Positions 6,228-60,861 of a stretch of 64,000 bases of DNA are shown here, one piece after another. The position numbers and the translations under genes were made by a program. Source of the DNA: a virus. The notes beneath the pieces are model-generated. The model was given only the letters and a program-made list of their open reading frames with translations, searched no databases and was not told the origin of the DNA. Within the stretch, counting starts at the first letter, position 1; the number at the start of each line of letters is the position of its first letter. Location: the IMG/VR virus record IMGVR_UViG_3300027302_000005, positions 1 to 64,000 of that record; one strand, 5' to 3'.

Positions 6228-7115
6228 ATGCGTGGATACAAAGTTTTCAATTCTGACTGGACTTGCCGTGGATTCCAGTTTGCTGTAGGTGAAACCTATA
6301 CCCTACCTAAAGGACAAAAACCAATTGCTTGTAAGCGAGGATTTCACTTCTGCGAACGTGCAGTGGATTGTTTCAATTACTATTCTTTTAACCCCTCTAA
6401 TAAGGTGGCAGTTGTTGAGGCTGTAGGGGAGGTTGTTACAGATGGGGATAAATCCTGCACAAACTCCTTGAGGATTGTTGAGGAAGTTAGTTGGGAGAAG
6501 CTGTTGACTATTGTGAATACAGGGGTTGGTAACTCTGGTTACCAAAACTCTGGTAACCAAAACTCTGGTGACTGGAACTCTGGTAACCAAAACTCTGGTG
6601 ACCAAAACTCCGGTAACCGAAACTCTGGTAACCAAAACTCTGGTAACCGAAACTCTGGTAACCGAAACTCTGGTGACCAAAACTCTGGTGACCGAAACTC
6701 TGGTAACCAAAACTCTGGTAACCAAAACTCTGGTATCCGAAACTCTGGTGACTGGAACTCTGGTAACTGGAACTCTGGTAACTGGAACTCTGGTAGCCTA
6801 AACAGCAACACGCCAGATACAATCAGGATATTTAACAGAGAAATCAAACGCTCCGAGTGGGAAAAGGCAAACATTCCTGACTTCTTTTATTTTAATTTGA
6901 CAACTTTTGTTTTTGAATATGCAATGACACAAGAAGAAAAAGAACAAAACAAGAGATGGGAGAATGTTGGTGGATACTTGAAAACCTTAGACTACAAAGA
7001 AGCATGGCAAGAAAGTTACCGGAAAGCCAGTCAGGAAGATAAGGACAAAGTGAAGAAACTACCTAACTTTGATGCAGATGTATTCTTTGAGATTACAGGG
7101 ATTCGTGTAGAATAA
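6228..7115 (+). CDS. phage pentapeptide-repeat protein (NSGxx repeats) with N-terminal GYKVF...CRGFQF...GFHFC domain
   Basis: 18 NSG(N/D)(Q/R/W)-type repeats between a conserved-looking N-terminal domain and a C-terminal LPNFDADVFFEITGI. Confidence 0.85.
   Translation: MRGYKVFNSDWTCRGFQFAVGETYTLPKGQKPIACKRGFHFCERAVDCFNYYSFNPSNKVAVVEAVGEVVTDGDKSCTNSLRIVEEVSWEKLLTIVNTGVGNSGYQNSGNQNSGDWNSGNQNSGDQNSGNRNSGNQNSGNRNSGNRNSGDQNSGDRNSGNQNSGNQNSGIRNSGDWNSGNWNSGNWNSGSLNSNTPDTIRIFNREIKRSEWEKANIPDFFYFNLTTFVFEYAMTQEEKEQNKRWENVGGYLKTLDYKEAWQESYRKASQEDKDKVKKLPNFDADVFFEITGIRVE
6531..6800 (+). repeat. 18 x 15-bp coding tandem repeat AACTCTGGTRACYRR
   Basis: Counted directly. Confidence 0.95.
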
Positions 7116-19988: not shown

Positions 19989-20218
19989 TAAAGTGTATGT
20001 AGCACGTACACTTGACGGGAAAGATATTGTTGCTCGGAAGGTGAATGTTTCTGGTGATGCAACGTTGTGGGCTTGGTTCCACAAGCAATCTCCCGTCTCA
20101 CCAGCATTGCCAGAGAATGTTCTGAAGCTGCAAAGTGAGATTGTTCAAGGGACATTCCGAGAAGGTTGGTGTACTGAGACGGTTTATGATATTGTGGATG
20201 AAAATAAAGGAGAGGAAA

Positions 20219-20815
20219 TTGACTAAAAAGAAAGAACAAGAAGATAAGTTTTATTACGAACCTTGGAATGATACTGCTATCTGGAAAACCAAAGCAGAGT
20301 TTTTCAAGTATATTCGTGGTACTTTGCGTATGGGGTGGAAAAGGTATCCTTTAAAAATTGAATACCGTAATTCCATGACCATCCCCAACTTTGAAGGAAG
20401 TGGTGTGACGAATCCTAAAGTAAAGAAAGTTGGGCAATGTGACATCTGCAAGAACTGGTTTGCTCAGTCGGCTCTGGAATCAGACCATATCAAACCTTGC
20501 GGTACAATTCGAGATTGGGAGACAGCGGGGCAGTTCCTCCATAACATGTTTTGCGATAAATCCAATATCCGTCTTTTGTGTCAGGTTTGCCATGGCCATG
20601 TCACTTACGCAGAACGAATGAAAATGTCAATGGAAGATGCCATTATCGAGAAACAATGTGTAGCCTTTGGTAAGCTCTCAGCTTCAGACCAAGCTGCCAA
20701 GTTTCGTGAAGTTGGGATAGACCCAACCGAATACAGCACCAAGGAAAAGCGTAGGGATAGGTGGCGTGAACATCTTAAATCTTTAGACAAAGAGAAGAGT
20801 TATGAAAATCATTGA
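20219..20815 (+). CDS. HNH endonuclease (replication-module type)
   Basis: CDIC...ESDHIKPCG...NIRLLCQVCH; likely TTG start after GGAGAGG. Confidence 0.85.
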   Translation: MTKKKEQEDKFYYEPWNDTAIWKTKAEFFKYIRGTLRMGWKRYPLKIEYRNSMTIPNFEGSGVTNPKVKKVGQCDICKNWFAQSALESDHIKPCGTIRDWETAGQFLHNMFCDKSNIRLLCQVCHGHVTYAERMKMSMEDAIIEKQCVAFGKLSASDQAAKFREVGIDPTEYSTKEKRRDRWREHLKSLDKEKSYENH

Positions 20816-55571: not shown

Positions 55572-55846
55572 CTTTCAGTTTTAGAGACGCTACCCTCTTT
55601 CCACCATTTATGATGTTGTCGGACTATATCTTCATACCGTTAGGTATGCCCCCCGTTTCGATGTCGCTTGACACCTACTGGCTTACACTCATCGGCCATA
55701 GTCTCTGCACGTTCTTAGTAGTCACTTCGTAACTCTTACCTACGCTTGGGTAGACTAAGCTTCGCTCAGGATTGCCCTCGACTTTACGTTAGGGTTTCCC
55801 TGAATTAGAGGGGTTTTTGTTTTTACAAAACAGGAGGCGCTTATTC
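55572..55846 (-). ncRNA. group I self-splicing intron (275 nt, no ORF) in terL
   Basis: Minus strand: P AATTCAGGGAA, Q AATCCTGAGC, R GTGCAGAGACTA, S AAGATATAGTCC; exon 1 ends in U, intron ends in G; P1 GGUGGU pairs with GCCUCC with a U-G wobble. Confidence 0.95.
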
Positions 55847-59100: not shown

Positions 59101-59769
59101 CTATGTGGCAGCACGAGGCTGCAATGTATATTTGATAAAGAATCCGCCAACTTTCACTGTGGCGTTATCGTCTGACAAGATGTATATCTCACCCGGATTA
59201 TTCAACGTCAATTCATTACCAATATAAAAGCTGGTGATTGCGTGAACCTTATATGTTCCAGAGGCTTTGTAGATAAGGGGAGAGGATGCTACAATTGTGT
59301 ATGCGTTCGGGTCGCTAACACCTAAATGAAACTCTACACGAGCCTCCTGATTGTTAGCATTGGTTGTGATGTCAAACTCGATACGGAAATCAACCGTATC
59401 TCCGATTTGAAACTCACTGAAACTAAGCTGATTGGTAGATGTGTTCCAAATGTCTGTAATGTATTTTGACTGATAGACGCGATTTGTGTACTGTCCCAAT
59501 CCATCATTAGTGAGCTTCTTGGCCACGTTAGGAACAACTACCAAAGGGGTAGATTGTGTTGCTGTATCGTTGTAATCAACCCACCCGTGCCATTGCCTTG
59601 AGATGTTATCAGGTAACACCATCTTTACACGTTTGTTTGTAGGGGAAACTGGAACAAATTCATTTGGTAAATGAGCAACAACTGTGTTGCTACCATCCCC
59701 ATCTACAATAACAATTTCATCATTTGAATTGACAGGCCAGCATGTCGATTCCTTAGTTGTATCAACCAT
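59101..59769 (-). CDS. hypothetical structural protein
   Basis: GWVDYND..T; beta-rich. Confidence 0.65.
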   Translation of the reverse strand: MVDTTKESTCWPVNSNDEIVIVDGDGSNTVVAHLPNEFVPVSPTNKRVKMVLPDNISRQWHGWVDYNDTATQSTPLVVVPNVAKKLTNDGLGQYTNRVYQSKYITDIWNTSTNQLSFSEFQIGDTVDFRIEFDITTNANNQEARVEFHLGVSDPNAYTIVASSPLIYKASGTYKVHAITSFYIGNELTLNNPGEIYILSDDNATVKVGGFFIKYTLQPRAAT

Positions 59770-59791
59770 GCTAAAATTCCTGTATTTTGAT

Positions 59792-59842
59792 TGGTGCTGT
59801 CTATCCGATTCGAACGGATGTGGGATTTCTCCGCTGGATTAC
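59792..59842 (-). tRNA. 3' half of a split tRNA (best fit tRNA-Thr UGU): GTAATCCAG-CGGAGAAATCCCAC-ATCCGTTCGAATCGGAT-AGACAGC-ACCA
   Basis: Perfect T-arm, long variable arm, encoded CCA; acceptor strand AGACAGC pairs with GCTGTCT of the 5' half. Confidence 0.9.
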
Positions 59843-60238
59843 CTACCTTTCCCTTTTAGAATTAGTATTCCTGTTCTTGAATGTAGGGGTGAGTGAGTGG
59901 CAATTAGGGCAGAGTATTCTTAGATTCTCTAATGTGCAATTTTCAGCATCGCCATCTATGTGATCTATTTCTGTTAAAATAGAACCATCGGAGTGGCGCT
60001 TATCCCACCCACAGACCTCACATTGTGTCCCCCTAGTGGAATGCAGATATTTTCTTACAAAGCTTTTTAATTGCTTGGTTTTACCTTTCCAGCCAACTAA
60101 GTTCCCAGACAACCACTCCTTAATGTTACTTTCGTATCTGTGATCCGCTTGGCAAGCATTACTACAGTAGATGTTCTTATTCCCATAAGATTTAGGTACA
60201 AAAACATTTCCACAGCTTAGGCACGTGAAGTGGTTCAT
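59843..60238 (-). mobile_element. HNH endonuclease gene inserted in the tRNA anticodon loop
   Basis: CLSC..YCSNAC Zn finger; CEVCG...EIDHIDGDAENCTLENLRILCPNCHS. Confidence 0.92.
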
Positions 60239-60257
60239 ATTTTTTTTTTTCTCTATT

Positions 60258-60292
60258 AAAACCAGTGCAATCGGCCACTATGCGAAGACAGC
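60258..60292 (-). tRNA. 5' half of a split tRNA: GCTGTCT-TC-GCATAGTGGCCGATTGC-A-CTGGT-TTT
   Basis: Acceptor strand, D-arm with GG, anticodon stem CTGG pairs with CCAG of the 3' half. Confidence 0.9.
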
Positions 60293-60299
60293 GAAATAC

Positions 60300-60800
60300 C
60301 CCAGTCTTATCGGCGACGAGGTGGTGCCACGATTCAAGACCGTAGGTAATGAATCAACAAATAAAAAACCCCAACGTAAGCCTACGCCAAGAGGGAGGGG
60401 CCATCTATCTTAAAATAAAGTGTGCTGCGCTCAACCGTTGCTTCCAGCGGTTCCATGTCAATTGCTACAATCGGTGTAGCCCACGCAGCAAAGAGAGAAT
60501 GAGAGCTGCGACCGGGAAACACCCAATCCATATACACCTCTCATTATATACAAGCCATTTAATTATTTAATTAAAATAATTGTATTCGTATGGCTTGGCC
60601 TGAATACTCGGAGTTTAGACAGGTCTTGCTAGGCTTCCCACTTCCCGTTACCTTTGATTAAAGTGAGTTCGGCTTCTCACTAGGAATTTGTTGCACGGCG
60701 GTAGTCAGCATCCTCGCGCTGATACACTACAAGAGTGTTCTGGCGACTTTCCCAACTACAGTCCGGCAACAAGCAGCACCACAACCTTCCGTGAATGTTA
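60300..60800 (-). ncRNA. structured non-coding region upstream of the split tRNA (unassigned)
   Basis: No convincing ORF; several nested stems; lies between the promoter at 60834-60861 and the tRNA. Confidence 0.4.
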
Positions 60801-60833
60801 TATTGTAACACAAAAGATGCTGCCTACAAGACA

Positions 60834-60861
60834 GTTATAACATACTGTTCCAGTTTGTCAA
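60834..60861 (-). promoter_or_regulatory. sigma70 promoter TTGACA-N16-TATAAC with extended TG
   Basis: Read directly. Confidence 0.55.

Follow-up and report, generated by a model that had tools for sequence, protein, structure and literature searches.

An HNH homing endonuclease gene, probably without an intron, lodged in the anticodon loop of a phage tRNA-Thr(UGU) gene

We analysed a 64,000-nucleotide stretch of viral DNA (hereafter the window), which comprises the first 64 kb of the 82,457-bp IMG/VR virus record IMGVR_UViG_3300027302_000005. The record is rated 89% complete and belongs to a tailed phage, with genes for a large terminase and a portal protein on the minus strand. At positions 59792–60292, also on the minus strand, a tRNA-Thr(UGU) gene is divided within its anticodon loop by a 415-nt insert that consists of a short leader and a gene for an HNH homing endonuclease. 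The reading that we favour, at a probability of about 0.68, is that an endonuclease gene without an intron has become lodged in what is likely its own target, leaving a tRNA-Thr(UGU) that is undecayed but dead. The tRNA is most likely broken, because a sister phage keeps the whole gene and no splicing route was found. A recent homing insertion that destroyed the tRNA had been among the possibilities raised in an earlier note made from the sequence alone, and it is the one that best fits the intact allele, the sister phages that have no tRNA and the habit of this HNH family of lying at tRNA-Thr(UGU) genes.

The 5' half of the tRNA gene (60258–60292, 35 nt, minus strand) contains the 5' strand of the acceptor stem, the D arm, the 5' strand of the anticodon stem and loop residues U32, U33 and U34; it was defined from the sequence, ARAGORN in intron mode and a base-for-base alignment to the intact alleles of two other contigs, L079 and L083. 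The 3' half (59792–59842, 51 nt, minus strand), defined from the sequence, ARAGORN and the L079 allele, continues with G35, U36, A37 and A38, followed by the 3' strand of the anticodon stem, a 14-nt variable arm, the T arm, the 3' strand of the acceptor stem, A73 and an encoded CCA. Between the two, on the same strand, lie an A-rich leader of 19 nt (60239–60257; AATAGAG, eleven A residues and a T), which has no counterpart in L079, and the HNH gene (59843–60238), identified as an open reading frame (ORF) and by Pfam and phrog matches. Its 131 codons (60238–59846) are followed by a TAG stop (59845–59843) that forms the final three bases of the insert, and the leader is the only non-coding portion of the 415 nt. 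The limits of the halves, the leader and the ORF and the length of the insert, as first reported in the earlier note, were all confirmed by the sequence, the ORF and ARAGORN.

When ARAGORN was run without its intron option, it reported no tRNA gene in the window, and a search with the tRNA model RF00005 gave no match in the whole 82,457-bp record. With introns permitted, ARAGORN called one gene, tRNA-Thr(tgt) at c[59792,60292], with a 415-nt intron. Standard tRNA finders thus overlook the split gene, and such split tRNAs consequently go uncounted in phage annotation. Joined in silico, as the earlier note had proposed, the halves form an 86-nt cloverleaf with a 7-nt loop carrying UGU; the acceptor stem has 7 of 7 pairs and the T stem 5 of 5, the D stem has 3 bp plus a T-T, and the anticodon stem has four pairs plus U31-U39. 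The G1-C72 and C2-G71 pairs and the long variable arm that had been described from the sequence are present in the joined molecule, together with G35 and U36. Taking G1-C72, C2-G71, G35 and U36 to be the threonine identity set, from the literature on E. coli ThrRS, the joined molecule is predicted by its identity elements to be a tRNA-Thr(UGU).

The decisive evidence against chance tRNA halves is an uninterrupted allele. Relatives of the locus were found by searching JGI metagenome contigs with the protein encoded directly downstream (59769–59101), which returned four. In L079, which has 94% identity in this neighbour protein and 86.2% nucleotide identity over the downstream gene, an unbroken 91-nt tRNA-Thr(tgt) occupies the same site, with the same short spacer and downstream gene after it; this tRNA scored 47.7 bits with RF00005 (cut-off 29). 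Because L079 reads straight through the anticodon loop, the junction is fixed at U34/G35: the insert of the window lies between T34 (60258) and G35 (59842), and relative to L079 no tRNA base was lost or duplicated. The search for uninterrupted alleles that had been suggested therefore settled the join in favour of tRNA-Thr(UGU), in agreement with the intron-mode call of ARAGORN, and ruled out the alternative joins giving GGU, UAU or UAA that had also been put forward. A short contig from sequencing run X11, in which 59842 is joined without a gap to the 5' side of the anticodon stem, represents a further uninterrupted relative.

The variable arm, of 14 nt in the window and 19 nt in L079, is not the short loop of class I tRNAs (4–5 nt). 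Long variable arms were also present in the tRNA-Thr genes of L052, where an 85-nt tRNA-Thr(tgt) lies just upstream of an HNH homologue, and of L083, a 341-kb phage with a tRNA array. The latter carries a third long-arm tRNA-Thr(UGU) allele (56.5 bits on RF00005), which matches the window at every base of the D arm and of the 5' side of the anticodon arm. The joined halves and the genes at L079 2888–2978, L083 1946–2030 and L052 1401–1485 make up a class of long-arm phage tRNA-Thr(UGU) with a 3-bp D stem and a GTGGCCGA-type D loop, which is class II-like and yet carries the Thr-type G1-C72, C2-G71, G35 and U36. A literature search on long-variable-arm phage tRNA-Thr(UGU) found no paper. Exact words from either tRNA half had no match in IMG/VR, and no host tRNA was identified, because a 25-nt word from the 3' half was unmatched in 185,579 species genomes.

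Comparison of the same site in related phages showed that both the tRNA and the HNH gene are optional. No tRNA is present there in L001/L080 (one contig, seen twice) or in L082; L081 carries a tRNA-His, and L079 a tRNA-Met in addition to the tRNA-Thr. In a contig from run X2, 59789 is joined to 60414 and the whole block is absent. The presence of the HNH gene is likewise polymorphic at the locus, as it is missing in L079, L001/L080, L081, L082 and the X2 and X11 contigs. Since other sister phages are entirely without it, the tRNA-Thr is, to judge from these sequences, dispensable in the phage lineage.

The protein encoded by the insert matched Pfam HNH (9.2e-5, 23 bits; cut-off 21.4) and, as its best phrog match, the HNH endonuclease family phrog_1271 (1.8e-21). 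It keeps 40 of 40 invariant columns in an alignment of 13 sequences, its own included, and the residues kept include C6, C9, C25, C29, C73, C76, H93, N105, C110, C113 and H114, among them eight cysteines and the H-N-H residues. The protein is full length, with a C-terminus that is the natural end of the family. Because the ORF aligns end to end with the family, from its first Met to its last Arg (56–66% identity, with one homologue at 93%), the sequence of the insert is explained by coding. Cultured relatives with 57–59% identity were found in the T5-like phages HdH2 and vB_Kpn_B01 and in Pectobacterium phage CB7. In Escherichia phage vB_EcoS_HdH2, where the HNH protein is 56.9% identical over 98% of the query, the stop of the annotated HNH coding sequence overlaps the first base of a tRNA-Thr (L086 1090).

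In IMG/VR, 77 loci encode a relative of this HNH protein. Adjacency to tRNA genes was counted for L002–L041 and L058, which amount to 29 distinct full-length loci: a tRNA lies within 150 nt of the HNH gene in 28 of them, and 13 of the 29 abut a tRNA-Thr, against a background of 20 Thr among the 166 distinct tRNAs in the loci. All six of the closest IMG/VR relatives (48–60% identity) abut a tRNA-Thr(tgt), with gaps of −9 to 117 nt. The HNH gene of the window differs from these free-standing relatives in that it is not intergenic but interrupts the tRNA-Thr between positions 34 and 35. In some loci the HNH gene is fused to the ends of a tRNA: its ATG directly follows the CCA in L002 (1440/1441) and stands 3 nt after the CCA in L004 (1374–1378), and in L007 (~1778–1788) its stop codon falls within the next tRNA. 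Such fusions suggest that the HNH messages may be made or limited by tRNA processing.

It is conceivable, although rather unlikely, that the arms of the split tRNA are kept in a non-decoding form that serves the HNH gene by setting the stability or level of its message, in addition to acting as homology arms. The acceptor, D and T arms would then fold around the mRNA, and RNase P and the 3' trimming enzymes would mature its ends. Besides the tRNA-end fusions of relatives (L002, L007 and HdH2), the minimum free energy fold of the 501-nt precursor is in keeping with such a role, as it retains the acceptor and T stems (z = −2.49), although this z-score is modest and the tRNA stems themselves contribute to it. 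No separate sigma-70-like promoter was found in the 76-nt spacer between the upstream terminator and the tRNA, and control through transcript processing has been proposed for the expression of the endonucleases in the T5 and T4 tRNA clusters (PMC2330249). However, a recent insertion without selection on the arms predicts the same facts.

Some loci of the family showed further features of their own. In L004, a tRNA 3' fragment with the T arm, the 3' strand of the acceptor and ACCA follows the HNH stop (~1891–1922); the matching 5' strand was not found in the locus, and the fragment has the appearance of a decayed tRNA. A second subgroup of HNH proteins (40–47% identity; L008, L012, L019, L020, L022, L027, L029–L031, L034 and L038) consistently adjoins tRNA-Lys(ttt), a gene that in some loci is 84 nt long. 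The tRNA arrays also held calls of 92–95-nt tRNA-Ile(tat).

More distant relatives are found inside introns in the anticodon loop of tRNA-Leu(taa), at six loci with introns of 769–791 nt (L042, L044, L045, L048, L050 and L051), and in introns of tRNA-Phe(gaa), one of 773 nt (L046) and one of 377 nt with a truncated HNH (L059). These intron-borne proteins match residues 55–128 only, at 45–49% identity, and by a rough count the copies have ~170 nt of non-coding ribozyme sequence on the 5' side and ~110 nt on the 3' side. The family is therefore found in three states: beside a tRNA, in a tRNA within a ribozyme and, in the window, in a tRNA without a ribozyme.

Two of the introns, L059 1342–1802 and L046 1017–1866, are the same tRNA-Phe(GAA) intron with an N-terminally deleted and a full HNH, respectively, and the short intron of L059 agrees with a stage of decay that would be expected of mobile introns. 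ROOL RNAs were also observed in phage tRNA arrays beside HNH-bearing tRNA introns, at L046 1878–2469 (263 bits) and L050 2389–2985 (239 bits).

The existence of intron-borne relatives, the internal HNH deletion in L059 and the position and U/G ends of the insert, which are as in group I tRNA introns, would be in line with an origin from an HNH-bearing tRNA-Thr group I intron whose ribozyme was deleted; the tRNA would be equally dead, and only the origin would differ. We consider this origin very unlikely. The closest relatives with a checkable context (48–66% identity; L002–L007 and HdH2) are free-standing, whereas the intron-borne proteins match in part and at lower identity, as given above. 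A deletion of the core reaching exactly to the start of the leader and to the stop codon is itself improbable, and Rfam detected no fragment of a core.

To look for a ribozyme, the region 59300–60800 was compared with Rfam at E≤10. No group I intron (RF00028), no self-cleaving ribozyme and no family inside the insert was detected, in accordance with the earlier observation that no ribozyme core was visible; this permissive scan gave just two matches, to other families and at chance level (E ~6). In the whole window, RF00028 at E≤0.1 found none besides a group I intron in the terminase gene. RF00028 was a fair test here, because it scored 90.6 bits (E 7e-22) on that terminase intron of the same phage and 19.9 bits (E 0.014) on the ORF-bearing tRNA-Leu(UAA) intron of L042.

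The terminase intron is a feature in its own right: it has no ORF, is 275 nt long (55572–55846, minus strand) and splits the Walker A motif of the large terminase between exons 55939–55847 and 55571–54240, with U at −1 and G as its last base. The ORF list holds only the 3' exon, which matches profile positions 183–618 of 642. As a trans-acting ribozyme for the tRNA it was rejected, since its guide, which pairs with GGUGGU, is not complementary to the end of the tRNA 5' exon.

Excision of the insert by proteins was evaluated through the ends of the insert and the genes of the phage. A closing helix at the insert ends reaches at most 2 bp, which 989 of 1000 shuffles equalled, and ARAGORN found no tRNA-like shell (0 genes) in three head-plus-tail constructs of the insert. 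RtcB, RNA_ligase and RNA_lig_T4_1 had no match in the 89%-complete record, RNA_lig_T4_1 being unmatched in the control genomes too. A bulge-helix-bulge of the archaeal type was also rejected, as an informal inspection by eye and a small junction fold gave no helix with two 3-nt bulges. Neither of the excision routes suggested in the earlier note, by a protein or by a trans-acting ribozyme, was borne out. Among the sequencing runs, the stretch was complete in one only, a riverine metagenome. No RNA run contained it, and four runs labelled as RNA-Seq had only 4% of its words; X11, which is labelled RNA-Seq and flagged as probably DNA, contained short pieces of related tRNAs and the allele without the block.

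Several observations weigh against an intron-less endonuclease gene in a dead tRNA. Not one tRNA stem pair is broken: the halves differ from L079 by 7 substitutions and a 5-nt indel, none of which disrupts a stem pair, and four of the seven substitutions form two compensatory pairs, one in the D stem (11-24) and one in the T stem (49-65). The insertion is clean, with no loss of target, as one would sooner expect from an established mobile element than from an accident. An HNH protein of 93% identity, P0001, is present on two other ENA contigs, so that the HNH lineage is of some age. The insert lies at the classical group I position, and the U before it (T 60258) and the G at its end (59843), which had been noticed from the sequence, proved to be as described; we put the chance of such U/G ends at a fixed site at ~1/16, and a published figure for any one nucleotide pair, considered across eight positions, is 40.3% (10.1101/2020.01.27.920355). 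In addition, the four U residues at the end of the 5' exon can pair with GAAA in the leader, both of low complexity, to form a P1-like helix of four pairs in which a U-G wobble marks the splice site.

As to the first of these points, the undecayed state of the halves is weak and not decisive evidence for function, because only 7 substitutions separate them from the intact allele. By our estimate, the neutral expectation for the branch leading to the window is ~2 stem hits, and none was seen (P ~0.15). In the outgroup L083 the D stem is as in the window and the T stem is different; because L083 agrees with the window in the D stem only, the compensatory changes are not assignable to either lineage. 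The proposal that little decay points to a working element therefore found no support.

Many of the same features would be in place if the insert were a true intron, in which a cryptic ribozyme overlapping the HNH ORF, or proteins of the host or phage, rejoined the halves into a working tRNA-Thr(UGU). The U at −1, the terminal G and the classical 34/35 position, the possible P1-like pairing between exon UUUU and leader GAAA and the undecayed halves would all agree with it, as would the distant HNH relatives in real group I introns of tRNA-Leu(UAA) (6 loci) and tRNA-Phe(GAA) (2 loci), and tRNA introns of unknown type have been reported from the Lak phages (PMC6784885). Nevertheless, we regard this as unlikely. 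RF00028 was silent at E≤10 when both of its controls scored; the end-to-end alignment of the ORF with its family explains the sequence by coding; the relatives with a checkable context (L002–L007 and HdH2) are free-standing; the insert ends without a closing helix or tRNA-like shell; the phage has no ligase or RtcB match; and the tRNA is dispensable in sister phages. It is equally improbable that the insert is a minimal tRNA intron, ribozyme-free or cryptically catalytic, that cellular enzymes cut and religate so that the phage keeps both the tRNA and the selfish gene.

For the reading that we prefer, an HNH homing endonuclease gene without an intron in its own target, we propose the following mechanism. 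By analogy with T4 SegB, the HNH protein would recognize and cut the DNA of the intact tRNA-Thr(UGU) gene, and its own gene would have come to lie in the cut site or have been copied there by double-strand-break repair. The two tRNA halves would then serve as homology arms when the gene is copied into intact alleles like the one in L079, and the interrupted allele would be immune because its cut site is split. Transcription would yield an HNH message within tRNA arms that are not rejoined, and the decoding tRNA would be lost, a loss that the phage may tolerate because the tRNA is dispensable and relatives live without it. The perfect look of the halves would be due either to a recent event or to their repeated re-copying by homing.

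Upstream of the tRNA, the 76-nt spacer (60368–60293, minus strand), a module common to L081, extends from a terminator-like hairpin (60392–60369, minus strand) that closes a conserved non-coding unit at ~60405–60860 on the same strand. This unit lies between a near-consensus promoter and the hairpin, immediately upstream of the variable tRNA cassette site, and has counterparts at L001 3456–3905, L079 2184–2494 and L081 2124–2463. RNAalifold of four sequences gave 51 pairs, five of them with compensatory changes, and Rfam gave no match to the unit; it also contains a 43-codon ORF that is deleted in L079 and L081. We regard the unit as a candidate new phage RNA. Between it and the downstream gene lies a hot spot for small cassettes, a site that contains tRNA-Met plus tRNA-Thr, tRNA-His, a ~70-nt hairpin module alone or nothing, with small spacer modules shuffled among phages.

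Elsewhere in the window, a 226-aa ORF at 20135–20815 (plus strand) had a weak HNH match of 14.5 bits (22.8 with in-frame neighbours). A sub-threshold match to a plant microRNA precursor at 6574–6686 (minus strand; 44.7 bits, gathering threshold 110) is probably a chance hairpin.

To our knowledge, homing endonuclease genes inside other genes normally persist only within a self-splicing intron or an intein, and whether the nuclease or the intron comes first is a standing question. At the locus described here, the nuclease is alone at precisely the point in the anticodon loop where group I introns insert, and the empty site is found in a sister phage. The series of three states, beside a tRNA, in an intron and bare in a tRNA, offers a test of target recognition, insertion and intron association, and the window and L079 form a clean allele pair for a cleavage or homing assay. 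If the insert were a true intron, it would represent a new splicing route for bacterial tRNAs. A literature search, with subscription journals outside its coverage, found no published account of a phage tRNA gene that contains an endonuclease gene without an intron.

Among known systems, mobE of phage Aeh1 is reportedly a free-standing endonuclease gene inside a host gene, nrdA, with no intron or intein, and the two protein halves of nrdA are said to reassemble with function kept. In contrast to that case, a tRNA broken in its anticodon can decode only if its two halves are ligated. Mobile group I tRNA introns of the classical Leu.3Ug setting, a name that denotes insertion after the third loop base with U before the insert and G as its last base (10.1101/2020.01.27.920355), resemble the insert in loop position, in the U before it and the G at its end and in carrying a member of the same broad HNH family. 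They differ in their long non-coding flanks and RF00028 signal, as the insert has 19 non-coding nt and no signal. For the Lak megaphages, PMC6784885 describes 'enigmatic' tRNA introns, including one in a putative tRNA-Thr(TGT), with unclassified inserts and alleles with and without them; the insert of the window differs from these in being a nuclease gene alone.

A further group of known systems comprises the endonucleases of phage tRNA regions. According to PMC2330249, T4 SegB, whose gene lies in the T4 tRNA cluster, recognizes tRNA gene DNA, cuts inside the tRNA genes of phages without SegB and drives the inheritance, or conversion, of the tRNA region. It resembles the HNH protein, as proposed here, in being a homing endonuclease that acts on tRNA gene DNA. 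Unlike the HNH protein, it belongs to the GIY-YIG type, and its cut sites are in the T arm or at the 3' end, not in the anticodon loop. The same source places the ORFs of the T5 homing endonucleases F-TflI and F-TflII in the tRNA gene cluster of that phage. With the free-standing HNH genes of the T5 type (T5 F-Tfl and HdH2) the gene in the window shares its habitat in a tRNA region and its abutment on tRNA-Thr, and the HdH2 protein is of the same family; theirs lie between whole tRNA genes, whereas that of the window lies inside one, at 34/35. In our view the locus is best described as a T5-type HNH homing endonuclease gene of phage tRNA regions that has entered a tRNA gene without being carried by an intron.

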